A stretch of 64,000 bases of DNA from a virus (IMGVR_UViG_3300025413_001239); one strand, 5' to 3'; positions 21,354-39,276 are shown, counted from the stretch's first letter. A program made the numbers and translations. The notes: generated by a model from the sequence alone, not told the origin.

Positions 21354-21549
21354 ATATAAGTTATTTGATGAGCGGCAAAAGTATATGTATGTAAGTCACC
21401 GTAAAAGATGAATTTGGTTATGTGGTAATCTACTAGTATATTTGCAGTAGTTAAGTGGTTAATTGTTAAGGGTTTACATATAAATAAAATAAAAAAAGTT
21501 TTTGCCATATCAAAAAATACCCTTATCTTTGCATTCTAAATTAACAATT

Positions 21550-22323
21550 ATGGTATTAGAAAATGTTCAAAGTAAAAAAGTTATTAAAACAAGTTATGTT
21601 CGTGGTAAGTATCCTTTATTAACTCAAAACAATTACAAAACAATTAAGGGTGAAAAGTTGGGCATCAAAACACTTATATTGTATCTAAGTCCTTATAAGG
21701 ATAATAGTAAGGGTAAAAACTTATGTCCCAAGGCTAGTTTAGGTTGTAGCAAAGCTTGTTTATTTAATAGTGGTATGGGTGGTATGTATGAGCAAGTTGC
21801 TAATGGTAGACGTAATAAAACAGAATGGTTTCTCGAAGATAGGGAAAGTTTTGTTGGTACGCTTATTGTTGAGATTGCGAAAGCGGTAAAAAAGTATAGT
21901 GCTGATTGGCATTTGAGTATTCGCTTAAATGGTACTAGTGATATTGTTTGGGAAAACATTTATTATGGTGGTAAGAATATTTTCGAGCATTTTCCTGATG
22001 TAGATTTTTATGACTATACTAAAATTAGTAGTAGATTCAAAAAACAACTACCAAAAAATTACCACTTAACTTTTTCAAGGAGTGAAGAAAACGAAAGTGA
22101 AGCTTTAAGCTTATTGCGTAAGGGTTTCAATGTGGCTGCCGTATTCTTAAAAAAACCAACACATTACAAAGGGTTTAAGGTAGTTGATGGCGATTTATCT
22201 GATAACCGTATTGGTGACGAAAAGGGTGTAATTGTAGGTTTATCCTATAAGAACGCTACAGGTAAAAATGGTGGTGAATTAAACCAATATGCGAAGACTA
22301 GTGGGTTTGTAATATTTATTTAA
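21550..22323 (+). CDS. GP88-family radical-SAM-like phage protein (start moved to ATG 21550)
   Basis: CPKASLGCSKAC, IRLNGTSDI, FYDYTK, YHLTFS and DGDLSD motifs. Confidence 0.75.
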   Translation: MVLENVQSKKVIKTSYVRGKYPLLTQNNYKTIKGEKLGIKTLILYLSPYKDNSKGKNLCPKASLGCSKACLFNSGMGGMYEQVANGRRNKTEWFLEDRESFVGTLIVEIAKAVKKYSADWHLSIRLNGTSDIVWENIYYGGKNIFEHFPDVDFYDYTKISSRFKKQLPKNYHLTFSRSEENESEALSLLRKGFNVAAVFLKKPTHYKGFKVVDGDLSDNRIGDEKGVIVGLSYKNATGKNGGELNQYAKTSGFVIFI

Positions 22324-22382: not shown

Positions 22383-23273
22383 ATGGATATTAAACAACAA
22401 GCACAAGACATTTTAAGTAAACATGGATTAGATTTTACAATTAGTAAATTACCATTAATAGCTATTGATGAAGGTGGTAATCAGTTGATAACACCTTATT
22501 ATGGTTTAGTCAATTCGAGTAATAACGAATGCATCAATACTTGCCGAGAAGGTTATACCATATCCCAAAACAGTGATGTTATTGAGATGGTGTTAACGGG
22601 TATGCAAAAGTTTGGTGATGAGTTAACAGTTAGCAAGGCTGGGTCAATTAATAACGGACGAAGGGTATTTGTGCAGTTGGAAGTTAAGGGCTTAAAAAAG
22701 ATTGGTAATGATACCATGAAGCAGTTTGTTACTGTTATTGATAGTAACGATGGTAGTACAGGTCTTAGTGTGGGTATATCAGATATTCAAGCACATTGTA
22801 CTAATCAGTTTTTCAGATTCTACAAAAAGGGTAATTCAAGGTTCAGGCATACTGCAACTATTACTCAAAAGATTCAAGAGATTCCTAGTTTAATTGAAAC
22901 AGCTCTGAATGAAAACCTAAGGCAGGTTCGTACATACGAGCGTTTCTTAAGTACTGAATTAAGTAAGAACTTAGCTGATAAGATGGTTAAGGAAGTGTTA
23001 GGTTATGATAGGGTGTTTACGAGCTTAGAAGACTTCGCAAAGATGACTAATCGTTCAACTGATATGATGGATACGCTTTATAACAATATTCAACATGAAT
23101 TTGGTGAGGTTGGTGAAAACTTATTTGGTTTGTTTAATGGTGTAACTAGATACACTACTTATCATCAAAGTACCCCTAAGCGTTTTAATGGGCATGATGA
23201 AAGTCTCATTGTTGGTTCTGGCTATAAGAAAGCCTTAACAGCTTATGACCTTTGTCTAGCTGAAATAAGCTAA
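22383..23273 (+). CDS. DUF932-family (phage/plasmid TIGR03299-like) protein, copy 1
   Basis: YTISQN, GSINNGRRVFV, DSNDGS, CTNQ, LFGLFNGVT.Y motifs. Confidence 0.75.
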   Translation: MDIKQQAQDILSKHGLDFTISKLPLIAIDEGGNQLITPYYGLVNSSNNECINTCREGYTISQNSDVIEMVLTGMQKFGDELTVSKAGSINNGRRVFVQLEVKGLKKIGNDTMKQFVTVIDSNDGSTGLSVGISDIQAHCTNQFFRFYKKGNSRFRHTATITQKIQEIPSLIETALNENLRQVRTYERFLSTELSKNLADKMVKEVLGYDRVFTSLEDFAKMTNRSTDMMDTLYNNIQHEFGEVGENLFGLFNGVTRYTTYHQSTPKRFNGHDESLIVGSGYKKALTAYDLCLAEIS

Positions 23274-23278
23274 AATAC

Positions 23279-23320
23279 TTATCCACACTTAGCTTCGGTT
23301 GAGTGTGGATAACTTTTTTT
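23279..23320 (+). terminator. Terminator whose stem is formed by two inverted perfect DnaA boxes
   Basis: TTATCCACA-CTTAGC-TTCG-GTTGAG-TGTGGATAA followed by a T-run. Confidence 0.75.
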
Positions 23321-23324
23321 ATAC

Positions 23325-23400
23325 ATGGGTAAAAAAGTAACGGGTAGGTCGGAGTATACCCCCGATGTCGTTTAGAACTATCGTCTTGTCTCAATGACAC
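23325..23400 (-). ncRNA. Candidate small RNA, copy 1 (ends approximate)
   Basis: TATCTTTG promoter at 23403-23410; body conserved with 39061-39120; no ORF. Confidence 0.55.
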
Positions 23401-23807
23401 TGCAAAGATAAGGGTTTCGTTTCATATAAAAAAACTTTTTTTATTTTTGTTTATGTGAAAATATAGTATTATATTTGCATCACAATAAAATTAAGTAGTT
23501 ATGAAAGTTGCAAAATTAGTAAGAGTGTCATTAGTTTGTCGTGTAATTTGTGAGGATACAGCTAGTAAACAGGATATTTTGGAATTGGCTATTCCTAAGT
23601 TAAGTGAAGCACTTATGGATAATCCGTATGAATCGGTTGAAGAAATTCTTGATGATACAGAATGTCCTTTTGATTTATCAACTGATGATTAAAAATAAAT
23701 TTTTTTATGTGGAGATATACTAGTATATTTGCAGTATATTTGCAGTATAAAATTTATTATTAACAATTAAACAACGAAGATGTCCCCGTTCAAAGGGCAT
23801 GTAGCTT

Positions 23808-24344
23808 ATCGGACAATATTTCAAAGCGTGTACATTAGGCGCAAATGGTAAAACAGTTAACAAGTGGGTTTATTCGTGGGATTTCAATAATGGGCTTAAA
23901 TTAATGGAACATTCATTTATTGGCAATCCGTTTGTTTCAGCGGTTGAAAGTCTTATATGGAATAAGCCTGAACGTTTGGTATGGGCTGGTGATTATGCAG
24001 ATAAGTGTAAGCAACGTAAAAGTAATGTGTATGACCGTTGCACTGACAAAAACCAAGTTAAGCCTATTGCGATGGTATCTACAAAGGAAAGCAGGTTTAT
24101 TATAAACCATACTAAGGGCTTGTATGTGGATAAAAATAAAGTACCTAAAGACAAATCTCATTGGGGTTTGCAATTACATCCTTTGCCATTACTAACTTGT
24201 GAGGGCAATTTAAGAGGTGGGGGTAGTTTTAGTGGTGCTAAAGGTGCTGAATTTGTTGGTACATGGGCAAGAGATTTAATTTCAGTTAGTTCAAAAAAAC
24301 CTATTGGATTTAAGGAAATTACACCTAACTTTAGTGAAGGTTAA
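23808..24344 (+). CDS. Conserved phage protein; frame extends upstream of ATG 23904 to an ATC codon
   Basis: (I)GQYFKACTLG...NGLKLMEHSFIGNPFV...VWAGDYAD. Confidence 0.6.
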   Translation: MGQYFKACTLGANGKTVNKWVYSWDFNNGLKLMEHSFIGNPFVSAVESLIWNKPERLVWAGDYADKCKQRKSNVYDRCTDKNQVKPIAMVSTKESRFIINHTKGLYVDKNKVPKDKSHWGLQLHPLPLLTCEGNLRGGGSFSGAKGAEFVGTWARDLISVSSKKPIGFKEITPNFSEG

Positions 24345-24537
24345 TAGATTATTGGATAACCTTATTTTATATAAGGTTATCCTTTTTGATATATCTATTA
24401 GTATGTGAACATAATGGTTTTAATTTGCGTAAAGTGGTTTATTCAAATTATCACGATTGTCATAAGATACCTAAGCGTATTGATGAAGATGACGAAGATG
24501 TTAAAGAAGTGTTGGTTATCAGTTAAATTAAATGAGA

Positions 24538-24890
24538 TGAATGTAGAAAAAATGTCAAGGTTTGATGTAATCCATAAGTTATTTCAATTGGATTTAGTAA
24601 ATGGGGATACTAACGGTTGTGTATCCTATAGTGAGTTTAAGAATCGTGCTAGTATTATGAGGTACGGGAAACAAAACAAAAATCAATTGAAGATTGTTTT
24701 TGTTGGGTTTCCTAAGGAGAATTTATTTGGATTCTATGTTCAATGTGATACTGACCCAAAGTGTATGAAACAAGCTTATGAGTGGTATTGCAAGTTAATT
24801 AAGGGTAAATTAGATTTTGACGATGTGGATATTCACTTTGGTAATTGTGGGTTTCCAATCACTTATGGTTATATTCGTTATATTGAATAA
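24538..24890 (+). CDS. Hypothetical protein (start approximate)
   Basis: 3' part of ORF 24405-24890. Confidence 0.5.
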
Positions 24891-24992
24891 TTATCACGTT
24901 TTATATCTCTATTAATTTTTGAACATAAAGGTTGAAGGTTAGTCGTATCAAAAAATACTAGTATATTTGCATCATAATTAAAAGTTTAACAA

Positions 24993-25550
24993 ATGAAAAA
25001 ATTTAATGTTACTTCGGGAGTTCTTGTTGCTTCTGACCCATGTTACACGATTAACCCACCAACATGGTATCAAGGCATCATTGAGAATGTCAAAAACGGT
25101 GAGTGGATTGCTACCGTTGAAGAATACGGTGAGCGTATTGCTGAATTGTTTATATCGCATAAGGATACGCATTTGACCTTATCTGATATGTTTGTTGATG
25201 AAGTTGAATTTCCCTTTGCAGCTGCTGTTGATAGTGGGCAATTTGGCTTTTTTGATAAGGCAGGTTATCGTCAAGACTTATTGGCTAATGGTTTACCTAA
25301 GGCTGATTTTGGTGATGGTTACGATAGAGAAGAAGGCGACCTATGGTATCGTGCTGTTTGTGATTTGACTTTAGGTGATGAAGGTTGGGGTGTATTGCCT
25401 GACGGTGTTGCTTCAAGTTCTGGCTTTGGTGATGGTCGTTATACCGTATATGGTGTTAAGGATGGCAATGGTGAATGGGTTGGCTTACGGGTTGTCTTTA
25501 TCAATTTGGAAACAGATAAAGAAGACGAAGACGAAGACGATGAGTTATAA
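24993..25550 (+). CDS. DUF4241-like acidic protein
   Basis: LVASDPCY, AVDSGQFGFFD and SSGFGDGRY motifs. Confidence 0.6.
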   Translation: MKKFNVTSGVLVASDPCYTINPPTWYQGIIENVKNGEWIATVEEYGERIAELFISHKDTHLTLSDMFVDEVEFPFAAAVDSGQFGFFDKAGYRQDLLANGLPKADFGDGYDREEGDLWYRAVCDLTLGDEGWGVLPDGVASSSGFGDGRYTVYGVKDGNGEWVGLRVVFINLETDKEDEDEDDEL

Positions 25551-25589
25551 AAAAGATTTGGGGGTATAGAAATATACCCCTATATGGGT

Positions 25590-25655
25590 ATGTACACAAA
25601 AGTGTACTATACGTCACGAGGACGTTCGGACGAGTGTACTATACGTCACGAGGGC
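25590..25655 (+). repeat. Palindrome plus hairpin-unit repeat (same family as 20384)
   Basis: GTACACAAAAGTGTAC, then GTGTACTATACGTCACGAGG twice. Confidence 0.85.
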
Positions 25656-25711
25656 AAAATAAATTTGGTAGTTTGGAGATATAGCCTTATATTTGCATCA
25701 AATTAAAAGTT

Positions 25712-26886
25712 ATGAAGAAATTACAGTTTATTGTTACATTAGAGTTTGCTGATAAGATAAGCGATGATAATGAAATTATTGAAGTTGCTAAAAATATCGC
25801 TAGAGCGATTAAGAATGAAGTAAACCACGGTGAAGGTATTGCTCCTGACGATAGTGATTCGTATACTTTAGGCGGTGAAGTTAAGCCTCAATTTATTGAC
25901 GAGTTTGCACCTATTACAATTTAAATTAGGTTAAGTCCTTAAATACTAGTATATTTGCATTCTAAATTACGAAGCATGGCAAAGTTTTTTGTTGTTGATG
26001 GTTATTGGAAAGATGATAAGTCTTCCATTAATGGTTATATTGTTACTGATATGGATAGCAGTGTCGGTTACCCTGTTAATGGCTTAACAGATGAAGATAT
26101 ATTCTTTTATGGTTTAAATGAACTGGAGATTCAAGAAGCTATTGAGTTGGGTGAAGATACCGTTCAAGATTTTGTTATTACAACATATAGAGAATATTAA
26201 ATTTGGTGGTATCGAAAGATACTAGTATATTTGCATCAAATAAAACTTATAAATTATGACTTATATTGTAACTGATATTGAGTATGATACTGATGGTGAA
26301 GATGTTGATTTACCTGAAACGCTTAGTATAGATGTTCCTGATGAAATTGATAACGAGGATGAAATTTTAGATTATATTACTGATAAAATAAGTGATATAA
26401 CAGAATTTTGTACACTTGGTTTTATATTTGAAAAACACTAAAAATTTACAGATTATGCAATTGTATGGGGTTAAATTAAACGATGGTCACAAGGCAAGAG
26501 TTGACCAACAATTTGAGGGTTACTTAGGTAGCGGTTACATTGAATTTTACACTAGGGGTGAAGCCATAAAGAAGGCTAAAGCCTTCGGTGGTTCAATTAA
26601 ACCAATGGGTAAAAACTATACTGTTAAGTCCTTAACGGTTTTGCAGTTATCCAAAAAGGATATACATAAAGTAATTGTACAAAAACTTAAAGGCTTAGAA
26701 GCTTTTATAGATACAGAAGAAATTGATGAGCCTTTATATCAAGGCGATATATTCGAGCAAATTATTGGTGAGGTTTCAGAAATTACAAAAATGAAAGGTA
26801 CAACTTTTCCACCAAACTTTGAAATGGAGTTAAAAGTCTTAAATACGTTATGTTTCAATGCTGATTATATAATGTTAGTAGATTAA
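25712..26886 (+). CDS. Four small acidic hypothetical proteins (25712-25924, ~25975-26200, 26256-26441, ~26455-26886)
   Basis: Three are preceded by their own promoter. Confidence 0.6.
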
Positions 26887-26955
26887 AAATAAATTTGCTA
26901 ATTCAAAATATAGTCGTATATTTGCATCATTATTAACATCTAAAAATTTACAATT

Positions 26956-27222
26956 ATGGGAATGGTTAAAAGACAAAAGCACACTTTGTTATTGGGTGAG
27001 GGTATTCACCAACACACTTTGTATGGTAACATTGAAGTTGAGGAAGAACGTAAGGACTTTTCAAAAGTTGTTGTTACAAGTGATGGAGTGTTAAGGCACG
27101 AAAAACCTAATGGTTCATTTGGTGAGCATAAAACTTTACAAGTTGAAAAGGGTAAATGGGTTCAAGGTAAGCAAGTTGAATACAATCCATTTAAGCAATC
27201 CGTATCACAAGTGTTTGATTAA
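26956..27222 (+). CDS. Small His-rich (cupin-like) phage protein
   Basis: GEGIHQH...LRHE...EHKTL...QVEYNP. Confidence 0.6.
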   Translation: MGMVKRQKHTLLLGEGIHQHTLYGNIEVEEERKDFSKVVVTSDGVLRHEKPNGSFGEHKTLQVEKGKWVQGKQVEYNPFKQSVSQVFD

Positions 27223-27316
27223 AATGAAAAGGGTAAATTAATTTTTACCCTTTTTTTGTTTATATCAAAAATAGTCTTATATTTGCACCAATATTAACAA
27301 TTTAAAAATTACAGTT

Positions 27317-27709
27317 ATGAACCCATTAGTCCATTCAAAGAGTTCAGTTAAACGTTGGGGTGGTAAAGTTGAAGATTACTTACCTATTCACATTTTACTT
27401 GATAGCCCAAAAGAAACTATGAATAACAATACAAGTAGATGCTTAACACATAATACTTGGTTTTGTTACCATATCATACCTAAGATATTTGGTTACAATA
27501 TAACCAATTCCGATGGTCGTAGTATTGATACTGTTGATATTGCTATGTTACATTGCTGCGAAGATTTTCGTTTTCGTTTCGTTCCTACACCACAAGACTA
27601 TTTGAAACACATGACTGTTGAAGCGTGGATGTGTAATGGAGTAAAGGATGTAGAAAATCCCGAAAGCATACAAGCAGCTAAGGATTTTTTAGAGAAAATC
27701 AGACAATAA
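27317..27709 (+). CDS. DUF6915-like protein
   Basis: PLVHSKSSVKRWGGKVEDYLPIH motif (family assignment from memory). Confidence 0.55.
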   Translation: MNPLVHSKSSVKRWGGKVEDYLPIHILLDSPKETMNNNTSRCLTHNTWFCYHIIPKIFGYNITNSDGRSIDTVDIAMLHCCEDFRFRFVPTPQDYLKHMTVEAWMCNGVKDVENPESIQAAKDFLEKIRQ

Positions 27710-27800
27710 ATTTGGTAGGTAAGTAATTTACCCTTACATTTGCACTCTATTAATAAATATCGGGATATTCCGAAAAAGTCATCTAATAAAATTTAAAGTT

Positions 27801-28457
27801 ATGGAACTAAAAGAAGCGTTACAAAGGTTTAAGGACTTAAACTTAGAGAAAGCAGTATTAACCTTTGATTGTGGTGGTGATAGTATGGGTGATACTAGTT
27901 GGGAGTTATTATTAGCTGATGGTGAAGCAGTTAAGGACGATGATTTGGAAAGTTACTTTGACGATGAAGTTTATAGGGAAGTAGAGTTCTATGTTAATTC
28001 CGATGGGTATTACAACGGTGAAGCAGGTACTGTTGAGGTTACTATTGAAACTGACGGTGAGGATGATGAATTTTTCAGTTATTATAAGGATGCTATGAGT
28101 GAGTTTACAGAGCAAACCACTAACATCATTGAGGTTAAATTAACGCCCGAAATGTTAGCTTTCATTTCTGAAAATGTATCAAACATTAATGGTGATGATA
28201 GTGGCTTTACTATCAATTACAAAAAAGACTTGCTTTTGACTGATGAACAAGAAACGCTTGTTGATGAGATTGAAAACTTGTTACAAAAGGAGTGTGAAGA
28301 ATATGAGCCTGAAATGGAAGGTGATGATTGCACACTTGAAGATTGGTTTAGTTATACCACAAATTCGGATAATGACGAATTAACTGAATTAACTATTAAA
28401 GACGATAACCTTTTGGTTATCCTTACTAATAGTTTCCAAACATTTAGTGAAAGTTAG
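27801..28457 (+). CDS. DUF6878-like acidic protein
   Basis: FDCGGDSMG...YNGEAGTV pattern (family assignment from memory). Confidence 0.5.
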   Translation: MELKEALQRFKDLNLEKAVLTFDCGGDSMGDTSWELLLADGEAVKDDDLESYFDDEVYREVEFYVNSDGYYNGEAGTVEVTIETDGEDDEFFSYYKDAMSEFTEQTTNIIEVKLTPEMLAFISENVSNINGDDSGFTINYKKDLLLTDEQETLVDEIENLLQKECEEYEPEMEGDDCTLEDWFSYTTNSDNDELTELTIKDDNLLVILTNSFQTFSES

Positions 28458-28527
28458 GAAAAAGATTTGGGGGTATAGAAATATACCCCTATATTTGCAT
28501 TATTAAATAACACATAAAATACAGATT

Positions 28528-29235
28528 ATGGCGAAAATTATTGTTGAAAATTACAAGTTCGATTTTGACTTGGGTTGCAGGCTTTTAAAGTTAAAGCACA
28601 CAGAATGTCCTTTTGTTCAGTTGGAAGATTTTTGGGATGAAATTAAGCCCTTAACTTTCAAGGAGATTGCACAGCTTGAAAACTTGGAGATGCGAAGGAT
28701 TGGTATTGTATGCTTGGGATTGGAAAGGCTTGTTGCAGAAGTTAATCCAAACAGATTAAGTGAGGAAACGCTTATCAAAAAAACTACTTGGATTGGTGAG
28801 GATGGTGGTTTAATTGAACACACATTTGAAGATACCTACGAATTGTTTGAGGTTGATGGGGAATACTTTAATAATGGTTTAACCGATTGGCGTAAGATGG
28901 GTAACTGTTACTTTGTTAAGTTCAAGGATACTTCAACCGATAGGGTTTATATGATTTGGGTTAATTTGTCAAGTGTTTGGAGTACAAACAATAAGCCAAA
29001 GGCTAATAGACAAAATTGGTTTATTGAAGAAGTTCATAAGCGAGAAATTTCACCTATTGATTGTATTGCTTGGACTTTGCAAACGAATGTTGCGAAGGGT
29101 AACATTGAGAAGATTATTAGACAAGGTGATTGCATTTTGGTTAAGCCAAAACACGCAAAGGATGTTACTGACGATAGCCCTGTTAGGCACTTAACAAGTG
29201 AAGAATACAGAAACTTGTTAGTTGCAGAAAGCTAG
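28528..29235 (+). CDS. Conserved phage hypothetical protein
   Basis: LEMRRIGI, DTSTDRVY and IIRQGD motifs. Confidence 0.65.
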   Translation: MAKIIVENYKFDFDLGCRLLKLKHTECPFVQLEDFWDEIKPLTFKEIAQLENLEMRRIGIVCLGLERLVAEVNPNRLSEETLIKKTTWIGEDGGLIEHTFEDTYELFEVDGEYFNNGLTDWRKMGNCYFVKFKDTSTDRVYMIWVNLSSVWSTNNKPKANRQNWFIEEVHKREISPIDCIAWTLQTNVAKGNIEKIIRQGDCILVKPKHAKDVTDDSPVRHLTSEEYRNLLVAES

Positions 29236-29514
29236 AAAATAAATTTGGGGGTATAGAAATATACCCCTATATTTGCATCAAATTAATAATTATGGCAAAT
29301 ACATTAGAACAAAGAACGGTTTATTTAAACGGTAGAATGGTTACTGTTGGATTAACGGGTGATTTAGGTTATATTGCCATAAACGATACAAACATATATC
29401 CTGACGCTGATAGTCGTGAACAGCATAAAGAAACAATCATACCGTTAATTAATAAAGCTGATTTAAAGGCTTTAAAGGTTGCGATTGACGAGGTGTTAAT
29501 AAATAGTAAGTAAT

Positions 29515-30030
29515 ATGAATATTAAGTGTACGCATTGTGGTTCAACTAACATCAAGGCTATTGATAACGAGCCATTAGACTTCAATAACGAGACTTTCGA
29601 TAACGAGTTATATGTTAAGTTCGATTGTAATAATTGTGGCAAAGAATGTACGAAAGTATTCGATTTGAAGCCACAACACAAGAAGCTTGATGAGCTTGTT
29701 GATAGGGTTATCCACCATATCGAAAAGGACTTTAGAGACAAGGACTTAACTGCTGTTGATGATTTGTTAAAGTGTTGCCCAGTTAAAAACCTTGTGGCTT
29801 ATTTGCCTGAAGAGGAATGGGCTGAATTTAAACACCTATTGTTATAACAGTTTAATTAAACAGATATGCCCGAAGTAATTAAAATAGTTAAGGATTGTCC
29901 TTGTTGTGGGGATAATACCAAAGTAAAAAAGGATTTTGATTTTCCTGATACAATGTTATGTTGTGATAAGTGTGGTGCTGATTTTACTAATGATGGCGAG
30001 ATTATACTTGACCCTCGTTTAATTAAATAG
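29515..30030 (+). CDS. Two small zinc-ribbon proteins (29515-29847, 29866-30030)
   Basis: CTHC/CNNC and CPCC/CDKC pairs. Confidence 0.6.
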
Positions 30031-30122
30031 ATGTACACATTAGTGTACCATACGAGCGTGGATGCAGAAATATTTGGCTATATCAAATAAAGTCCTATAT
30101 TTGCACTCTAAACAAACAGAAT

Positions 30123-30959
30123 ATGAGTTATAGTATAATCTACGACAGAGCCTTTATCAAGGTTGACGACAAAAGAACAATACCCTTTCTATTGATGGGT
30201 AGTAACAACTGTTACGACTTAAACAATAAACGTGCTAGGGATTGGGAAAATGCTAGTTTTCATAGTAACGGTATCATTGGTGATAACGAAGCTATCATAA
30301 AGAGCATTGATGATTATCGTGCCAGTTTAATTGAACGGTATGACGGTGTAGAACGTAGTGATGTTTATGACGACAAGCATTTCGGGTACTTTACAAGCCT
30401 TGCCTTTTATGGTAAGGGTACTTGGAAAACAACGTTTTCAGCTTATAGAAGCTACTTTGCTAATGGCATTAAGACAGCTAGAACGATTGAGGAATATAAG
30501 GCGTTATGTATAACTTTTGACGTTAAAGTGTATGTTTGGGATAAACAAAAGGACTTTATTGATAAGGGTATCGAATACAAGGAACGTGTTCATATAAACG
30601 ATACACAACACTTGATTGATACGGTTAAGGAGTTTGAAGATTACTACAAGCCTTTCGGTTATATGGTTTATATAACTAGCCATATAAGCGAATATACAGC
30701 AAAGCGATTAAAGGCTAAAAGAGTACCTAAGCAAAAAGAAGTTAAGGACTTAACAAAAGTATGGGTGTTAGAGTGTTTAAATGTTAATGGTTACTTTGTT
30801 AAGAATGGTCGTAGAAGTTATCGTTATTCACCTTGGAGTGATAATGCTAAGAAGTTTATAACTGAAAGACAAGCACAAGGATACTTAAATAAAATGCTTA
30901 GAAATAAAGATATGTTTGAAGTTAAGCCACTTGAAGGTAGCTTTAAGGTATTGGTTTAA
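30123..30959 (+). CDS. Hypothetical protein
   Basis: Own promoter; terminator at ~30978-31020. Confidence 0.7.
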   Translation: MSYSIIYDRAFIKVDDKRTIPFLLMGSNNCYDLNNKRARDWENASFHSNGIIGDNEAIIKSIDDYRASLIERYDGVERSDVYDDKHFGYFTSLAFYGKGTWKTTFSAYRSYFANGIKTARTIEEYKALCITFDVKVYVWDKQKDFIDKGIEYKERVHINDTQHLIDTVKEFEDYYKPFGYMVYITSHISEYTAKRLKAKRVPKQKEVKDLTKVWVLECLNVNGYFVKNGRRSYRYSPWSDNAKKFITERQAQGYLNKMLRNKDMFEVKPLEGSFKVLV

Positions 30960-31025
30960 TTTCACATATATTCTGTAATACATACAAGGGAACGGTTTAT
31001 ACCGTAGCCCTTTTTTTTATACCTA

Positions 31026-31075
31026 TATGTTCCGCTGTCACGAGGACAGCGGACGAATGTACTCAAATGTGTATA
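31026..31075. repeat. Hairpin plus palindrome repeat-family member
   Basis: TCCGCTGTC-ACGAG-GACAGCGGA, then GTACTCAAATGTGTAT. Confidence 0.8.
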
Positions 31076-31789
31076 TTAGACTTTATTTCGTTTAACGTCA
31101 CGATTGTAATAGCTACACAACGGTTGTAAGTTGGTGTAATGGTTCAATTGAACCACTTCTTGTTCGGTTAGTGCGGAACTGTTAGGTATTTTATGGTCAA
31201 TATCCCAACCATAATTTGGAGTACCATTATACAACCCATAATTATCCCAGCTCATCCATGACTCAAATTTAGATTCAAGATGTTGTTTAAATTCTTCAAT
31301 TGTACAACCTAGTATTTCAGTTGTTTTTGATGGTTTATTAAACCCTTTAAGACGTAAAGCGGTTTGGATTCTTTTCCTAGTGGTTTCTTTAAGCCGATAA
31401 AGAATATCAGTTTCATACCTGTTTTTACGATAATTATAGGCATACATTGTAACAGCTTCTTTATTACGTTTTTTATATTCATTACTATATGCTTTAATCT
31501 TTTCAGCGTTTTCCTGATAACGAATTTTATTATACTCACTTTTTTTAACCTTAGTTAGTTCATAGTATTGGTTTAATTTAACCGTGTTAGCTTCTCGATA
31601 CTTAACGTTATACTCACGTTTTTTATCCTTATCATAACTAGCTTTAGTACGTTTTAAAACTTTATCTTTATTAGCTTCATAATATTGCTTTGACTTTTCA
31701 GTTATAGATTGTTTATTAGCTTCATAATAGAGTTTTTTTCTTAGTTTAATAGCTTCTTTTTGTTCTGGTGTATATGTTCTTTTTGCCAT
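31076..31789 (-). CDS. HNH homing endonuclease with EANK repeats
   Basis: LGCTIEEFKQHLE...WDIDHKIP...LNHYTNLQPL. Confidence 0.85.
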   Translation of the reverse strand: MAKRTYTPEQKEAIKLRKKLYYEANKQSITEKSKQYYEANKDKVLKRTKASYDKDKKREYNVKYREANTVKLNQYYELTKVKKSEYNKIRYQENAEKIKAYSNEYKKRNKEAVTMYAYNYRKNRYETDILYRLKETTRKRIQTALRLKGFNKPSKTTEILGCTIEEFKQHLESKFESWMSWDNYGLYNGTPNYGWDIDHKIPNSSALTEQEVVQLNHYTNLQPLCSYYNRDVKRNKV

Positions 31790-31791
31790 AG

Positions 31792-31962
31792 TTATAGTGG
31801 TATTTCAGTTATGTGTTTATTTTTAAATAAGTCTTTAGCGATTAAGTTTTCGATATACTTAGATTTGTTATTATATAGTTCATCAACTTTTTGCATTATT
31901 AATGGGTTAATTGAAACTGTTACAGTAACCTTTTTTTCCTTTTCATCTAGTTTTTTTCTCAT
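31792..31962 (-). CDS. Small ribbon-helix-helix-like protein (56 aa)
   Basis: KKVTVTVSINP...NKSKYIENLI; ATATTTAT motif upstream. Confidence 0.55.
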   Translation of the reverse strand: MRKKLDEKEKKVTVTVSINPLIMQKVDELYNNKSKYIENLIAKDLFKNKHITEIPL

Positions 31963-32097
31963 AGTGTTCTTTATTATAAATATATTAAAACATAAGAAAA
32001 AGTCAAGAAAAAAATAAGAATTTTAAAAAATAAATTTGGCGGTATAAAAAATAGCCGTACATTTGCATCATTATTAACAATTTAAAGATTTAAAAAA

Positions 32098-32922
32098 ATG
32101 GAACAAGTATTAGAAATTAAGGAGTTTACAAAAGACCTTTTAGGTGACACAGCCACTGTAAGGGCTAATTCAACTAGGGGTGAAGAAGTTATTAAAATTG
32201 CACTTGACAAAATTGTTGTTAGGGATAATTTTAACGTTAGGCAAAATTATGGTAACTTGGAAGAATTAGCTTACTCAATGATTGAGAATGGTCAAGTAAT
32301 GCCTGGTCATGTTGATGTTCTTGCCGATGGTCGTTTCGTTTTAACTGATGGACACAGAAGGTTTAAAGCCTTAAAACTATTGGCTGAAATGGGTCACGAA
32401 CCTTTATTTAAGGCGATTGTGAACCCTAAAAAAATGACAGAAGAGCAAAGGATTCTTCAAGTATTTACTACGCAAGATAACAAGCCTTTAGAACCAAACG
32501 AAGTTGCGGAACTAATTAACCGTTTAATTAATTTGGGGTACAAACAAACCGATGTTGCGAAACGTATTGGGCGTACAGGTGCATACGTTTCACAGATGCT
32601 TAACTATGTTACTGAAAGTCCTTTGATTAAAGAAGAAGTTAAAGAAGGCAATATTACAGTTGCAGCTGTTTTGGATTTGCAAAAGAAGATACCCAATAAA
32701 GAAGAAAGGGTTAAGGCAGTTAAGGATGCTGTTGCAAAGAAAAAAGAAGAAACGAAAGACGATAAGAAACCAACGCCAGTTTCAGCAAATGAAGTAATTG
32801 GTAAAAAAGATAAGGGTGCTATTGCTTTTGAGATTGTGTGTTTAATTGAACAGGCTTATAGCGAAGAACTTGAAGGTGCTGATTTGAAAATGATGGTTAG
32901 CATTATTAAGGGTTATCTTTAA
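32098..32922 (+). CDS. parB: ParB/Spo0J-like protein
   Basis: NVRQ, LEELAYSM, TDGHRRFKA CTPase motif; HTH KQTDVAKRIGRTGAYVSQML. Confidence 0.85.
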   Translation: MEQVLEIKEFTKDLLGDTATVRANSTRGEEVIKIALDKIVVRDNFNVRQNYGNLEELAYSMIENGQVMPGHVDVLADGRFVLTDGHRRFKALKLLAEMGHEPLFKAIVNPKKMTEEQRILQVFTTQDNKPLEPNEVAELINRLINLGYKQTDVAKRIGRTGAYVSQMLNYVTESPLIKEEVKEGNITVAAVLDLQKKIPNKEERVKAVKDAVAKKKEETKDDKKPTPVSANEVIGKKDKGAIAFEIVCLIEQAYSEELEGADLKMMVSIIKGYL

Positions 32923-33066
32923 TGGTTTAATTGAATAGGTTAAAGTGGGATAGTAGAAATACTATCCCATTTTTATTTTAAGAACTTAATAAAAATAAAT
33001 TTGCTCATATCAAATATACTAGTATATTTGCATTCTAATTAATTAACAATCTAAAAATTACAGATT

Positions 33067-33918
33067 ATGACAAAGGTACACGAAAGTTTTAAGTTAGTTT
33101 CTAAGGCTATTAGCCACAAAGGGGAATCAGGTATTAAGGTAGAAATTCCTGCTATCTACGAAACTACAAATGAAGATGTGATTAAATTCAGTCACGTTAA
33201 CAGGTTAACTAAAATCAATGGAATTATTACTTTGGGTAATAGTCTTATTGAACTAGCCCACAATCTTAGGGATATAGTTGTTGCTAAGATTGGTGATGAT
33301 TTTTACTACATTGATGGACAGCATTTGGCTAAAGCCTTATTCAAATTGGGGTTGCCAATAAGGTTTAAATTGGTTTATTTAAACGATGAAGAAGAAGCCC
33401 TTAAATTCATTACTAAAATGAATAGTAGTGCTAGAAATTGGTCTTTGAAGCAGTACATTGAAAGTTATTCAAAGGTTAATAAAGACTTGGTTTATTTAAA
33501 CGAGTTAAATGCTCAAACAAGTGTTAGTTATAGTACATTAGGTATTGTGCTAACTAATCAATCAATGTCCTATGTTAAGAAATCAATAAAGGATGGTACT
33601 TTCAAAATAACCGAAAAGAAGGCAGCAAAAATAAGAGTTGATGTTGTGATTAACTTTTATCAAATTACGGGTGTAAAGGTATCTCAATATTGCACTCACG
33701 GACTAATTGACTTTATTAAGAACTTACCAAACGGCTTGAATGATTACTTAGCTAATGAAGGTAGATTTTTAGCTGTTGTGGAATGTGGTAAAATCGTGCC
33801 AAAAGTACCACTAGGGCAACGTGAAACCTATGTCGAATTATTTTCAAAGTGTTGGAATAAAAGCAAAGGTGGTAAATTTAAAGCCTTAAAAGAAAGGTTG
33901 GCAGAAATGGAAAATTAA
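33067..33918 (+). CDS. ParB/Srx-fold (DGQH-type) protein
   Basis: YYIDGQHLAKAL; MNSSARNWSL. Confidence 0.6.
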   Translation: MTKVHESFKLVSKAISHKGESGIKVEIPAIYETTNEDVIKFSHVNRLTKINGIITLGNSLIELAHNLRDIVVAKIGDDFYYIDGQHLAKALFKLGLPIRFKLVYLNDEEEALKFITKMNSSARNWSLKQYIESYSKVNKDLVYLNELNAQTSVSYSTLGIVLTNQSMSYVKKSIKDGTFKITEKKAAKIRVDVVINFYQITGVKVSQYCTHGLIDFIKNLPNGLNDYLANEGRFLAVVECGKIVPKVPLGQRETYVELFSKCWNKSKGGKFKALKERLAEMEN

Positions 33919-35552
33919 TGGTTTAAATAAATGGGAAAGCCTAAAAAACTTTCCCATTTTTATAAAATAAATTTGCTCATATCAAATATACTAGTATATT
34001 TGCATTCTAATTACTTAACAATCTAAAAATTACAGATTATGACAATTTACGAACAAACGAAAAAAGATGCTTTAGAATTTATTCAGAATGGTGGTAAAGC
34101 ACAACAAGCTACTAATGAAAATCAAAGATTGGTTGCTGAGAATATTTTAGATTTTCTAAGGTTTAATGGCTTAAATGTTGTATTAGTGGCTGATGGTTGT
34201 GTTATTGATATTCACGTTCAAGTTTATAACGCATTTCAAGATTCAAAGCATAATGGGGTCGTGAGGGTATTCTACAAGTCTGCTAGTGATGTTATAAAAA
34301 ATAATAAGGTGCAGTATTTACCTTCGTTAATTACTAATAGTATTGTAGGTTATACAAGAGAATGGAAAGACTTTAACGGCAATGATGAGTTATTGGGTTT
34401 AATTAAACAAGAAATATTTGAGGTCTATAAATACAAAATTAAAAAATAAATTTGCTCATATCAAAAATACTCATATCTTTGCATCACAATAAAACAGAAT
34501 ATATGTTAAGTAGTTTAATCAAAAGAAATGCAGGTTCAAATGAACCAAAGTCGTTAAGGGTTGGTAATAGTACTTTTCCCGAAAATCAACCTAGCTTAAA
34601 TGAATCATTAAAGATTGGTAAAACTGTATTACCCAACAACCAACCTAGTTTAAATGAATGGTGTAAAGAATTTAAAGTCTCTAGTCGTGTTCCAAAATAT
34701 TCGCAATTTTCACATCACGGTTAATATAACTGCATAACGGTTGAAGATTGGTGTAATGGTTAAGAAAACTGAAAGGGGTTACCGAAAGGTAACTCTTTTT
34801 AGTTTAATTAAACAGGTAAAAATAAATTTGTTTATATCAAATTAAGTCCTTAACTTTGCAGTAAATAAAACAGATTATGATAGAAACACTTTTAACTTTC
34901 TTTTTGATGGGTATGGTTTATATAAATGGGGTTAAGCCATTACAAGGCTTTAAGGATAAGCCTTTCAGCGAAAAAAGACGCATTGTCTTGTCATTAAGAG
35001 ATATGGATTAAAAATAAATTTGGCTGAATCAAATTAAGTCCTTAACTTTGCAGTAAATAAAACATACAGAATATGGCTAAGAAACTTGTTAGACTTACAA
35101 CCCATCAAATAATTGATGAAACGGTTGCGTTTTACGAAAAAAATATTCGAGCAAAACAAGACAATTGGTGCGAGTATCTAACTGATGATGGTAGAATGTG
35201 TGCCGTTGGTAGATGCTTAACCCCTAAGAGTTTGCAGATAGCCCAAACAGAATTTGGAGGTAAGGACTTTGGTAGCTTAAACTTGAATAGGATTAAGTTT
35301 AAGGCTCAATATACAGGTAAATGTGACGACTTTTGGTCATCACTACAAAGCCTACACGATAGCGAGAAATATTGGAATGGTAACCATTTAAGTTATATGG
35401 GTGAAATTAAGGTTAAAGCCTTAAAAGAACGATTTGCAAATATTTAATCAAAAATGCTTGTATATGAATAAAACAATTTGGATTGGTATATCAATTATTG
35501 TTTCAGTTGAATTAATTGGTATTCTTATGGGTTTAATTAAACTAATAAACTA

Positions 35553-35690
35553 ATGAAAATTTTAATGTGTTTGGCACTAGTAGTGCTGTTAACAAGTTGT
35601 TCATTCAAGAACTTACACCGAGTACATAAGGGAGATAAGATATATCGCCCACCTTGTAATTGTGGTCCACACTTTGGTCCGTTTAATTAA
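35553..35690 (+). CDS. Small lipoprotein (45 aa)
   Basis: MKILMCLALVVLLTSC lipobox. Confidence 0.55.
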   Translation: MKILMCLALVVLLTSCSFKNLHRVHKGDKIYRPPCNCGPHFGPFN

Positions 35691-35753
35691 ACAGGTAAAA
35701 ATAAATTTGGTTGATTGAAATTAATTCCTTAATTTTGTTGAAAATTACAGATT

Positions 35754-36062
35754 ATGATTAAAGCAATTAAGATTGATGTTCAGAACAGAACAGTTACTGA
35801 GGTTGAAATTCAAAACAACTTGGAAGCCTATTATAAGGAGATAGGCTGCGATTTAGTTGAGTTTGTTAAGGTCGATGAGGTTAACGACCTTATGGTTGAT
35901 GAAGAGGGTTTATTCACAAAGAATCCATTCTTTATAATGGAAGGCTTATATCAACCAATGAGAGGCAACGGCTTAATAGTTGGGGTTGATTTTGAAGAGG
36001 GTGAAACCATAAGCACAACCCTTACAGTAGATGAAGTAAAAGCAAGAGTACACTTTGTATAG
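35754..36062 (+). CDS. DUF3846-like protein
   Basis: IGCDLVE...MVDEEGL...GNGLIVG. Confidence 0.65.
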   Translation: MIKAIKIDVQNRTVTEVEIQNNLEAYYKEIGCDLVEFVKVDEVNDLMVDEEGLFTKNPFFIMEGLYQPMRGNGLIVGVDFEEGETISTTLTVDEVKARVHFV

Positions 36063-36114
36063 ACACTTTTGTACTTTTTTGATTTTTCGTTATATTTATT
36101 AATAAATAGATATA

Positions 36115-36759
36115 ATGAAAAATCAAAAATTAACAAGTGAAGAACGCAAAGCAAAAAAAATTGAAGCTAATAAAGCTTATCGAGAAGCTAATAAAATTAA
36201 ATTAACCGAAACAAATAAAGCAAAATACGAAGCTAATAAGGTTAAGATAGCTGAAAGAGCTAAAATTTATTATGAAGCTAATAAAGCTAAGATAATTGAA
36301 AAAAAACAATTATATATCCAACTTAATAAAGAAACTATTGCAGCTAAGAAAAAAGCTTATTATGAAGCTAATAAAGAAAAGTTAAATAAATTAACTAGAG
36401 ATTGGGTTAAAAATAAATTAGCTACCGACCCTTTATATAAATTGAAAGCGAATATAAGAACTTTAGTCGGGAACTCTATTCGTAGAAACGGTTATAAAAA
36501 GTTAAGTAAAACCCATTTAATTTTAGGTTGCACATTTGAACAATTCAAAGAACATTTAGAGTCACAATTTGAGCCGTGGATGAATTGGAATAACCGTGGG
36601 TTATATAATGGTACTGAAAATTATGGTTGGGATATTGACCACATTATACCAGTATCTAGCGGCTTAACTGAACAAGAAGTGGTTCAATTAAACCATTATA
36701 CCAACTTAAAACCTCTATGTAGTTATATAAACCGTGACGTTAAAATAAATAAGGTATAA
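36115..36759 (+). CDS. HNH homing endonuclease, paralog of 31076-31789
   Basis: EANK repeats; LGCTFEQFKEHLE...WDIDHIIP...LNHYTNLKPL. Confidence 0.85.
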   Translation: MKNQKLTSEERKAKKIEANKAYREANKIKLTETNKAKYEANKVKIAERAKIYYEANKAKIIEKKQLYIQLNKETIAAKKKAYYEANKEKLNKLTRDWVKNKLATDPLYKLKANIRTLVGNSIRRNGYKKLSKTHLILGCTFEQFKEHLESQFEPWMNWNNRGLYNGTENYGWDIDHIIPVSSGLTEQEVVQLNHYTNLKPLCSYINRDVKINKV

Positions 36760-36994
36760 CATACACTTTTGTGTACACAAGGACGTTCGGTGCATTGAAT
36801 ACAAATAACCCCCAACCGATTTGATTGGGGGTTTATTTAAACCTATTAAGGTTCATTCATAAAGTCAGAAATGTTTAATGGTTCAATCAATTCCTCGCAT
36901 TGAATGAACAAGTCAAAATCATCATAATCCAAAAGCATAGCTGTTTATTTAAACGTAAAAAAATAGGGGTGCGATTGCTCACACCCCAGAGTTA

Positions 36995-37255
36995 TTATTT
37001 GATGGCTGCTTTCAATTCAGCCTTTAATCTCTTAGCATCTTCGCCCTTGAAGGTTGAAGCATTACCTAAGAAATAAATTACAATGCTTTCAGCTGTATCA
37101 TAGCCATAAGCATCGTTTTTGTCTTGTAGGGTGCATAAAGCATCTAAATAAGGCTTTGCACCAAAGTAAACCTTTGCACCCCAAACACGCTTAATTTCAC
37201 GTCCTATAACACATAAAGAACGAAAGTTAACTACTGCATTTTTTGTCTTTGTCAT
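36995..37255 (-). CDS. Conserved phage protein (start moved to ATG 37255)
   Basis: FGAKPYLDAL...YFLGNASTFKGEDAKRLKAELK. Confidence 0.7.
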   Translation of the reverse strand: MTKTKNAVVNFRSLCVIGREIKRVWGAKVYFGAKPYLDALCTLQDKNDAYGYDTAESIVIYFLGNASTFKGEDAKRLKAELKAAIK

Positions 37256-37433
37256 AAACTGTAATTTTATTAAGTGATTAAGAAATTTCAGCAAAGATAA
37301 GTAGTTTATTTAAACCAACAAATTTATTTTATCCCTTTTTATAAACCTATTAACATAACTACAATAAGGGCGTATATTTATACGATTTTTTAAAAAGTTT
37401 TTGTTTATGTTATTTTACACCCTTATCTTTGCA

Positions 37434-37500
37434 ATGTTATTATAACAGGACGACATAAAAAATCGGGAGGTGTACTCCACTATGCGCTTTATTTTTATAT
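37434..37500 (+). ncRNA. Candidate small RNA, copy 3 (ends approximate)
   Basis: Promoter TATCTTTG at 37424; ACAGGACGA...ATCGGGAGGTGTACTCC core. Confidence 0.5.
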
Positions 37501-37667
37501 AACCATACATACGTTGGAATTTACAATATTATTCTAATACCGCCAAATAAAGTTATCCCCAAAATGATTTTTAAAATGTGGATAACTTTATTGCAGTTTA
37601 TTTAAACCATAACCTATCTTTGCTGAAATTTATTAACCGCTTCGAGAGAAGCACAATATTACAGATT

Positions 37668-38534
37668 ATGAAATATGTTAATTTAAAAGGTCAAAAATTA
37701 CAAAATGATGACGTGTTCCCAACAGTAGAAATTAAGTCATTTAGCGAGGCAATTAACCTCAAAACTAGGAAAGGTTATGATAATTTAGTTATCAGTAACG
37801 GCGAAGTAGTTAACGTTTGTAGTGATAGTTATGCACTACTTAAAAATGAAGACTTTTTTTTAAAGGTAGAAGAAAAGTTAATTGTTGACGCTGATGTAGA
37901 ATACACTAAAAGGAGTATAAACCGAAATAACCGTTCTTTTGCGGTTGATTACATTTTAAATGACGATAGGTATGATATTGTAATTAATAGCGGCAAAAAG
38001 GACGTTATTAAACCAATGCTTCGCTTTGTTAACTCTTATGATGGTAGTGCCAAAACAAAGGGTTCTTTTGGGTATTTTAGACAAGTTTGCACTAATGGTT
38101 TACACATTGCTGAAACAATGTTAAACTTTGATGTTAAACATAGGGGTGCAATAGCTGAAATAGTTCTCCCTAAGATGGATAACCTAATTTCAAATTTTAT
38201 GGAAAACGAATACTACACGTTAAAAAGTAAAGCTGAAACCCTTACAAATAGCAAAATTAGTGATGTAGCTAAATTTGTACAGGATATTTGTAAAAAAACC
38301 AATATCTTTAAATTTGAAAAAAGCGAAAAGAACCCCGAACCTTCAAAGTACGCTGAACAGGTAATAAACACAATTTTTAGTGAGGCAAATTACCTAAACG
38401 TTGTACCTAATTTGTGGCTGGGTTATAACTCATTTAATTCAATCCTTACCGATGGAACGTTTAGCAAAACATTCGAGAAAGAAACCGAATTTGATAACCT
38501 TATATTCAATAGGGTGCTTGAAATGGCAGGTTAA
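37668..38534 (+). CDS. DUF932-family protein, copy 2 (start ATG 37668)
   Basis: YALLKNEDFF, VNSYDGS, RQVCTNGL, LWLGYNSFN motifs. Confidence 0.75.
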   Translation: MKYVNLKGQKLQNDDVFPTVEIKSFSEAINLKTRKGYDNLVISNGEVVNVCSDSYALLKNEDFFLKVEEKLIVDADVEYTKRSINRNNRSFAVDYILNDDRYDIVINSGKKDVIKPMLRFVNSYDGSAKTKGSFGYFRQVCTNGLHIAETMLNFDVKHRGAIAEIVLPKMDNLISNFMENEYYTLKSKAETLTNSKISDVAKFVQDICKKTNIFKFEKSEKNPEPSKYAEQVINTIFSEANYLNVVPNLWLGYNSFNSILTDGTFSKTFEKETEFDNLIFNRVLEMAG

Positions 38535-38839
38535 GTACTTAACCGCTTAAAAGTAAGGGTAACAGAAATGTTACCCTTTTTTTATGCCCTTAACTATCCA
38601 TGTACACTAATGTGTACCATACGTGTGAAAATAGCCGTTTTTAGCCCATTTTGAGCCGTTTATTACCAAAATAAGGTAATCATATTAACAGCTTTATTTT
38701 AAGCCAAATTTGAGCCTTAAAATCAATTCTTTGATTACAATAAACCTATTTTTGCACAATAAAGCTATTAACTTTATTATAAGCCTATTAACTTTATTAA
38801 CCACTTAACAAAACATAAAAAAATCTTATGTTAGTAAAA

Positions 38840-39189
38840 TGTGGATAATTTTTAGATGTTAATAACTATGTGGATAAAATGTGGATAAGTACTTAGTAAC
38901 ATTTGTGGATAACTTATGTGGATAAAATGTGAATAACTTTTTTACTTATCCACATTTGTTAATAACGTATGCGGATAAAATGTGGATAACTTTTTTTGGT
39001 GGTATGAAAAAAAAGTTGTACCTTGCATCCGCATAGGCACATATATAAAAAAATAAAAGGCAGGTCGGAGTACACCTCCCGATGTCCTTTAGAACTATCG
39101 TCTTGTTATATTAACACTGCAAAGATATAGCAGCAAAATGACATGGACAAAAAAAGTTATCCACATAAGTAAAATAAAAATGTGGATAA
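38840..39189. promoter_or_regulatory. Dense DnaA-box cluster (oriC-like)
   Basis: Perfect TTATCCACA/TGTGGATAA at 38840, 38869, 38880, 38904, 38917, 38946, 38981, 39157, 39181; TGTGAATAA at 38928; near-matches at 38857, 38957, 38970. Confidence 0.88.
39045..39117 (-). ncRNA. Candidate small RNA, copy 2 (ends approximate)
   Basis: Full TTTG-N20-TATCTTTG promoter; conserved body; ends in a T-run; no ORF. Confidence 0.55.
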
Positions 39190-39276
39190 CTTTATCTTGT
39201 TTAATTAAACCAATATCAAAAATTTACCCTATCTTTGCAGTCTTATTAACCGCCGAAAGGCACTAAATTACAGATT

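Follow-up and report, generated by a model that had tools for sequence, protein, structure and literature searches.

The present analysis deals with a small, promoter-driven RNA element that occurs in three copies on a 64,000-nucleotide stretch of phage DNA, referred to as the window in the following. The window comprises bases 5870-69869 of a 148.7-kb virus record in the IMG/VR database (IMGVR_UViG_3300025413_001239), for which a completeness of 44% is estimated, and has a GC content of about 31%. As the record encodes a T4-type Gp23 capsid protein (E 1.8e-61), it is regarded as a fragment of a T4-like jumbo phage. Promoters in the record consist of a -33 element TTTG and a -7 element TAnnTTTG, which we take to be the consensus of the Bacteroidota housekeeping sigma factor. 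Relatives at the DNA level among cultured phages were exclusively Flavobacterium phages, with the similarity residing in a DUF932 gene. No tRNA or tmRNA genes were detected in the window.

An inspection without database searches (the sequence-only reading) had proposed three paralogous small RNAs behind promoters at 23410 (- strand), 39127 (- strand) and 37424 (+ strand). These positions were confirmed, each copy being preceded by a TAnnTTTG promoter, and blastn and the covariance model described below yielded exactly three copies in the whole 148.7-kb record. Each copy contains two helices, designated P0 and P1, followed by a GGAG-GUAUA-CUCC block or a variant thereof, which includes the 9-mer GUAUACUCC in copy 1, and by a U-run:

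23326..23410, - strand: copy 1; -7 box TATCTTTG at 23403-23410, RNA from about 23400 to 23326; P0 at 23398-23388, P1 at 23383-23363, GUAUACUCC at 23359-23351, U-run at 23336-23331
37424..37497, + strand: copy 3, diverged and with a short P1; -7 box at 37424-37431; P0 at 37435-37447, P1 at 37451-37465, GGAG-GUGUA-CUCC at 37466-37478, U-run at 37488-37496
39043..39127, - strand: copy 2; -7 box at 39120-39127, RNA from about 39117 to 39043; P0 at 39116-39104, P1 at 39100-39080, GGAG-GUGUA-CUCC at 39079-39067, U-run at 39058-39043

The family model scored copies 1, 2 and 3 with 68.9 bits (E 3e-15), 74.5 bits and 75.8 bits, respectively. The diverged copy 3 aligns with the others across promoter, core and U-run, and its middle hairpin is shortened. 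A 29-nt core pattern with up to three mismatches matched only at 23361-23389 and 39078-39106, both on the - strand (0 matches expected), and the promoter-plus-start motif TATCTTTGCANTGT was found five times with at most one mismatch, compared with 0.28 expected matches. The description of the element as free of open reading frames (ORFs) holds as well: copy 1 lies in a 64-codon GTG frame, which closes after three codons in copy 2. A coding element was rejected, as no frame is kept across the copies, between which insertions and deletions of 1 to ~20 nt occur. The T-rich runs reported behind the element were likewise recovered as a U-run behind all three copies. Folded individually, the window copies were no more stable than shuffled sequences (z 0.14, -0.79 and 0.03), and structural support comes from the family only.

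For the identification of homologs a seed search with a fixed-core pattern was carried out, which yielded six loci in IMG/VR and 45 in metagenomes with 44 distinct variants. The covariance model built from these 44 pattern-found variants detected 99 copies, 84 of them distinct, in 52 sequences, with two to eight copies per phage fragment. Many of the copies found by the model are diverged and invisible to the fixed-core pattern. Two loci (L053 and L037) carry six copies each, and three IMG/VR records illustrate the density of the copies:

63.9-kb IMG/VR record, 19% complete: 8 copies within 2.8-30.2 kb
86.9-kb IMG/VR record, 22% complete: 5 copies within 12 kb
109-kb IMG/VR record, 32% complete: 2 copies, forming an inward-facing pair

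Given the low completeness of the carrier records, all carriers look like fragments of genomes larger than 300 kb. At one further locus (L013, ~170-190) a CCTGAAT tandem repeat directly follows the element, which may represent a genome end or an assembly artefact.

The sequence-only reading had not recognized any known RNA family, and the Rfam searches agree with this: a scan of the whole window against Rfam 15 gave no match at the gathering score, and a scan of 37350-39250 with E up to 10 gave nothing overlapping the element on its own strand. No cultured phage carrying the element was found by blastn against INPHARED, no true member by the pattern search of 185,579 prokaryote genomes and no paper by a literature text search for the motif strings. 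The sole pattern match in a genome (L058) was rejected as a chance match; the GC content there is 54% and the covariance model finds nothing. At the sensitivity of that pattern, the element is thus neither a host RNA nor a mimic of a CRISPR repeat. Judged by these comparisons, the family is a multi-copy, previously undescribed one, carried by T4-like jumbo phage fragments with Bacteroidota-type promoters, apparently from giant phages of lake water.

In the model alignment, the elements measure ~65-80 nt and follow a common order. The 5' part is composed of the -7 box, 2-3 nt, P0, an RGA junction and P1, and the 3' part of GGAG-GUAUA-CUCC, 4 nt, URY, ~7 nt and the U-run. A strict TAnnTTT[GA] stands at a fixed distance in 71 of 84 copies and ends 2-3 nt before P0. 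The closing pairs of P1 are CGA/UCG; its loop measures 3 to ~20 nt and in many cases is A-rich or of the GNRA or UUCG type. At least five U residues lie within 32 nt after CUCC in 55 of 83 copies, and the stem in front of them varies between copies.

Covariation among the homologs carries the assignment of P0 and P1 as RNA helices. Two-sided changes were present at all four pairs of P0 and all six pairs of P1, and 92.4% of the cells of both helices are paired, compared with 83.8% after shuffling of the partners (the observed value was reached in 0 of 500 shuffles) and 31-60% when the strands were slid against each other. These values are to be read with caution, as the underlying alignment was fitted to the covariance model; the compensatory pairs GUC/GAC, AUC/GAU, GCAU/AUGC and GUUCA/UGAAC are already present in the raw sequences, and P0 and the base of P1 were also obtained independently with RNAalifold. 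From the pattern matches aligned with MAFFT, RNAalifold recovered the invariant stem only, and the covariance-model alignment was therefore needed. Within P0 and P1, G.U occurs 71 times and A.C 14 times. This excess indicates that the selected fold is that of the RNA (or a single-stranded nucleic acid) of the promoter-downstream strand, and on this comparative evidence P0 and P1 are demonstrably under RNA-level selection on that strand. The expectation that homologs would covary was thus borne out for these two helices but not for the 3' hairpin that the sequence-only reading had pointed to: the A-U versus G-U exchange noted there is a one-sided change in copy 1 only and does not represent covariation.

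The 3' block is characterized by its constancy. Nearly invariant is GUAUACUCC, which 82 of the 84 distinct sequences contain. At the alignment columns G116, U117, A120 and C155-158, 80-82 of 82 copies agree, and CUCC together with the loop G-U-A-U-A is invariant or nearly so in 78-82 of 82. The GGAG strand mutates without compensation, while the CUCC strand is nearly fixed. Between the loop and the tail, a candidate 3-bp pairing GUA:URY is formed in 94.7% of the cells, compared with 2-54% in slid positions; an alternative helix AGGU:ACCU was weaker and was discarded. At two loci (L028:9362-9491 and L025:6059-6193) an insertion of ~40 nt supplies a second UAUACUCC, and a small hairpin separates the two copies of this invariant motif.

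Comparison of the flanking sequences enabled a more precise description of the genomic setting. The element is usually one half of a back-to-back intergenic promoter pair and points against the flanking genes; the -33 elements of such a pair are ~45 bp apart, and the ATG of the partner gene is located ~120-130 nt away. The next downstream gene is convergent in 45 contexts, co-directional with its own promoter intervening in 22, and co-directional with the element as a possible direct leader in nine. According to these counts the element is a self-contained unit. Genes encoding DUF932 and GP88 proteins are recurrent neighbors, and the features next to the window copies are:

21502..22323, + strand: GP88-family gene directly upstream of DUF932 gene A (Pfam PF17338, E 1.1e-42)
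22383..23273, + strand: DUF932 gene A, convergent with copy 1 (Pfam PF06067, E 1.7e-16)
23470..23477, + strand: divergent partner promoter of copy 1, TATATTTG, which drives the ORF 23501-23692
37578..38534, + strand: DUF932 gene B, probable ATG at 37641 (Pfam PF06067, E 1.2e-13)
37615..37622, + strand: separate -7 box TATCTTTG of DUF932 gene B
39230..39237, + strand: divergent partner promoter of copy 2, which drives the ORF 39277-39864

As DUF932 gene B possesses its own -7 box, copy 3 is not its direct leader. In the window (37423-39128) two copies face inward around a DUF932 gene, copy 3 on its upstream and copy 2 on its downstream side, and at least five other lineages show such bracketing as well. 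The pair of GP88 and DUF932 genes also adjoins the element in relatives. A search for related loci with both DUF932 proteins gave no relatives. For DUF932 no sequence relative was detected in the PDB, the AlphaFold model has a mean predicted local distance difference test score (pLDDT) of 65 and gave no Foldseek match in the PDB, and no function is given in the literature mentioning the domain. Together with DUF932 and GP88, genes for DUF3846, DUF1281_C (Api92-like) and probable SprT-like proteins lie near the elements (window 35754-36062 (+); L048:10539-11357; L008:8559-9047), a gene set resembling that of plasmid leading regions. Further, the window contains a ParB/KorB-like gene at 32098-32922 (+; HTH_ParB 1.5e-06, KorB 5.3e-06). 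GTTTAWWTAAAC palindromes are situated in or beside several promoters near the elements, e.g., at ~37303-37314, ~37594-37606 and ~39198-39209; by analogy with the KorB regulon of RK2 they could be candidate operators for the ParB/KorB-like protein. A gene similar to HNH/NUMOD4 homing endonucleases (41159-41758, -) lies just past the element region.

A second type of neighbor are DnaA boxes. The exact box TTATCCACA occurs 16 times in the 148.7-kb record (~1.9 expected), and 13 of these boxes lie within ~250 nt of the three copies, arranged as follows:

23279..23312: inverted pair of exact DnaA boxes (23279/23304), foldable as a single-stranded DNA (ssDNA) hairpin with the box in the stem; -11.3 kcal/mol, z -6.3
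37553..37585: inverted pair of DnaA boxes (37553/37577), one arm being TTATCCCCA, between copy 3 and the next promoter; -9.5 kcal/mol, z -4.4
38840..38989: array of nine DnaA boxes, seven of them exact, 54-200 nt past the 3' end of copy 2
38994..39024, + strand: degenerate convergent promoter (TTTGG, 19 nt, TACCTTGC) with a DnaA box directly upstream
39157..39189: inverted pair of exact DnaA boxes (39157/39181) with a T-run, directly upstream of the promoter of copy 2; -12.2 kcal/mol, z -7.1

The sequence-only reading had located boxes beyond the 3' end of all three copies. This was confirmed, with the array as the group behind copy 2; the pair at 39157/39181 had gone unmentioned. Folded in silico as ssDNA, five inverted box pairs give hairpins whose stem contains the box (-7.7 to -12.2 kcal/mol, z -3.7 to -7.1). 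The inverted pairs carry A- and T-runs and can also be read as ordinary terminators; the one at 23279..23312, directly behind DUF932 gene A, is followed by T8 on the + strand and thus has terminator form, too. No DnaA domain is encoded in the 148.7-kb record, so that the boxes would bind the host DnaA. The array spans 150 bp and contains several direct pairs 11 bp apart; as relatives possess only one or two boxes at the equivalent place, it looks like a local expansion. The degenerate promoter at 38994..39024 is probably the remnant of a convergent promoter that is seen in relatives.

Co-occurrence of homologs with DnaA boxes was found in part. Of the 41 exact boxes in the relatives, 21 follow a copy at a distance of 3-115 nt on its downstream side, most of them at +38 to +65 from where the model match ends. 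A single box is located within 300 nt upstream, and this directional association recurs in at least eight other phage lineages. However, ~75% of the homologous copies have no DnaA box nearby, and the boxes are therefore best regarded as common though optional neighbors within the cassette that are not needed for the general function of the RNA. Within one subfamily the box abuts the -33 element of a conserved opposite-strand promoter (TTTGG, ~20 nt, GTTGTACCTTTG), which is directed across the element to the partner gene; this arrangement is present at a fixed distance in ~14 of 78 contexts. In several loci (L052:560-620, L054, L048 and L024; L046 and L050) tandem palindromes TGCTAAAnTCTTTAGCA and CTAAATAnTTTAG are placed between the element and the DnaA box, which may be extra RNA hairpins or operators.

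The reading we favor, at somewhat less than an even chance, is that the element yields a small RNA made early and in abundance, in which the invariant GGAG-GUAUA-CUCC/URY block would bind one conserved putative partner, with P0 and P1 as scaffold. From the host-type promoter in front of each copy the RNA would be produced early, in quantity and from several genes. Its invariant motif is the predicted binding site of one host or phage protein or RNA, so that a sponge function or a role within a ribonucleoprotein is envisaged for the RNA, to which the variable P0 and P1 would contribute a scaffold and 5' protection only. Since the same motif is present in all paralogs and phages, a shared partner is likelier than a purely local role in antisense regulation or priming. 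As to the partner, a trans target reached by base pairing was considered and rejected, as the complement of GUAUACUCC is at chance level in the window (9 occurrences, 8.7 expected). Several observations speak against this reading. The constant position of the element next to promoters, DUF932 genes and DnaA boxes points to local action in cis, for which a sponge acting purely in trans offers no explanation. The GGAG:CUCC hairpin does not covary, and 25 cells break the stem, 18 of them with A.C. The loop-tail pairing displays no two-sided change, and shuffled columns pair equally well. Moreover, the core was fixed in the seed patterns, so that its invariance is partly biased; nevertheless, GUAUACUCC is also preserved in the 40 additional copies that the model detected in the same loci.

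The favored reading and its alternatives are not all mutually exclusive. An unlikely yet appreciable explanation is a cis-antisense switch of convergent promoters, in which a DnaA-box-flanked promoter 9-19 nt past the element would transcribe back across it. The element would then control the neighbor gene by transcriptional interference or by an RNA duplex, with host DnaA as modulator of the opposing promoter. Three-hairpin antisense RNAs facing a leader are classical, as in ColE1 RNA I and R1 CopA. The RNA of the element would be fully complementary to the long leader from the opposing promoter. The opposite-strand module of box, -33 and -7 elements is conserved, the boxes are concentrated 38-65 nt beyond the model match, and the 18 A.C cells among the 25 that break GGAG:CUCC would be G.U in the antisense RNA. 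However, the convergent promoter exists in a minority of copies only: of the window copies, copy 1 lacks it, copy 2 has a degenerate form (TACCTTGC) and copy 3 a poorer one. A local role also does not explain an invariant motif common to all copies. Doubtful, with a small chance of being correct, is the proposal of a primer or activator RNA, which goes back to the sequence-only reading and is framed here as an origin role by analogy with ColE1 RNA II and its DnaA box, the ABC-primosome A-site and T4 oriF/oriG: the RNA would form an R-loop or primer, its extension would expose the box hairpins or the array on the displaced strand, and host DnaA would load the helicase there. The phage is T4-like, and T4 uses promoter-driven R-loop origins. 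Boxes are enriched directionally downstream of the copies in this genome and at least eight other lineages, they would bind host DnaA, and the inverted boxes fold as ssDNA hairpins in the form of an A-site, according to the passage on this site in PMC6127211. Against an origin speak the box-less majority of the copies and their density, as five to eight copies per 30 kb are implausible for origins, which should be few per replicon. Moreover, a U-run intervenes between RNA and boxes, the box pairs are also terminator-like and adjoin promoters, and GC skew displays no switch at the DnaA-box array. For this phage in particular there is a similarly small chance that the RNA, U-run, box hairpins and nine-box array together constitute a DnaA-assisted, transcript-primed start of replication or a DnaA-sensing switch of face-to-face promoters. 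If so, a T4-like jumbo phage would couple its early program or replication to the host initiator via a dedicated structured RNA.

A slim chance is given to the view that the repeats matter as DNA, comparable to mobile promoter-early stem-loop (PeSL) cassettes, and would provide homology for the shuffling of small genes in a hyperplastic region with the RNA as by-product. The T4-like phage with its strong promoters of host consensus, the intergenic position among small ORFs and the inward-facing copies around DUF932 genes in at least five lineages fit this view. So do the stem-loops followed by a promoter at 39157-39237 and 37553-37622, the former being an early promoter as in PeSL cassettes, and a 1.45-kb indel between two related phages (L019, 141-1593, and L031, ~200), which comprises one small gene and the whole module of element, convergent promoter, DnaA box and terminator. 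The crossover of this indel, however, took place at the microhomology GTTAAAGT outside of the element, and copies within one genome differ so greatly in P0 and P1 that little homology is left. From the compensatory changes and the one-stranded excess of G.U it appears that RNA folding, rather than homology of the DNA, is under selection. Moreover, the stem-loop of PeSL stands before the promoter, whereas the conserved structure here comes after it. Terminator stem-loops directly upstream of a promoter are present at 39157-39189 and 37553-37585 but are not general among the 84 copies. Very improbable is a cis element of the nut/put type, in which the nascent RNA would modify its polymerase and thereby allow read-through of the U-run terminator. 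It would account for one copy per promoter at a fixed distance, a hairpin of boxB size with an invariant pentaloop and a terminator-like U-run after two thirds of the copies, and action in cis would explain the many copies. However, in 45 of 76 contexts a polymerase reading through would enter a convergent gene in antisense direction, in 22 the downstream gene has its own promoter, and only in the nine possible leaders could the element head a co-directional operon. Least credible, and hardly to be expected, is a decoy small RNA that displays GGAGGUG as a Shine-Dalgarno (SD) sequence and titrates the ribosomal anti-SD. The sequence-only reading had raised it on account of two copies, and GGAGGUG is indeed present in copies 2 and 3, but within the stem of the hairpin and not conserved in the family: 78 of 82 copies read GGAGGUA, GGAGGUG is limited to a few, and the variants GGGAAG, GGUAGG and GGAAGG destroy the match. 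The invariant part is GUAUACUCC and not GGAGG, and a decoy acting through the SD match is therefore unlikely. Genes for S21 or RegB were not found in the 148.7-kb record, i.e., in an estimated 44% of the genome.

If the favored reading of an early RNA with a shared partner is true, the few conserved non-coding RNAs of jumbo phages are joined by a well-supported family with 84 distinct sequences, two covarying helices and a near-invariant 9-mer. Promoter cassettes in the hyperplastic regions of T4-like phages could then carry a selected RNA beyond promoter and terminator signals. The invariant motif would serve as a handle for finding the partner. The preferred position of DnaA boxes downstream of the copies is a testable hint that the initiator of host replication is read or used by these phages.

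Among known systems, the PeSL cassettes of T4-type phages (Arbiol et al., 2010, PMC2839356; Comeau et al., 2014, PMC4122927) are the nearest described things. Like the element, they are small cassettes repeated in intergenic regions of a T4-like genome, combine an early promoter of host consensus with adjacent stem-loops and flank small accessory genes; the strong early promoter of host-sigma consensus in a T4-type genome is given here by Gp23 and the -33/-7 promoters. In contrast, the stem-loop of PeSL is a terminator upstream of the promoter, and neither a covarying transcribed RNA nor an invariant motif is described for it (PMC2839356, PMC4122927), whereas the conserved structure of the element lies in the transcribed part behind the promoter, shows covariation at the RNA level and is common to very diverged phages. 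The ColE1 origin with RNA II, the antisense RNA I and a downstream DnaA box resembles the element in that a promoter-driven structured RNA points at a DnaA box, and a subset of the copies has a face-to-face promoter that would give a fully overlapping antisense pair. In the A-site of the ABC-primosome, a DnaA box forms part of the stem of an ssDNA hairpin (Masai et al., 1990, as cited in the relevant passage of PMC6127211); the DnaA boxes near the element are able to adopt such a position in silico. Unlike these systems, the element is multi-copy and mostly box-less, has a U-run before the boxes and is without sequence similarity to them. With T4 oriF and oriG it has the T4-like phage and a short promoter transcript entering an AT-rich region in common; the T4 origin transcripts, however, need neither a conserved fold nor DnaA boxes and start from few sites per genome. 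Finally, lambda nut and HK022 put are likewise paralogous promoter-proximal RNAs with a small hairpin and terminators behind, but nut and put head operons, whereas the element mostly faces convergent genes or precedes another promoter.

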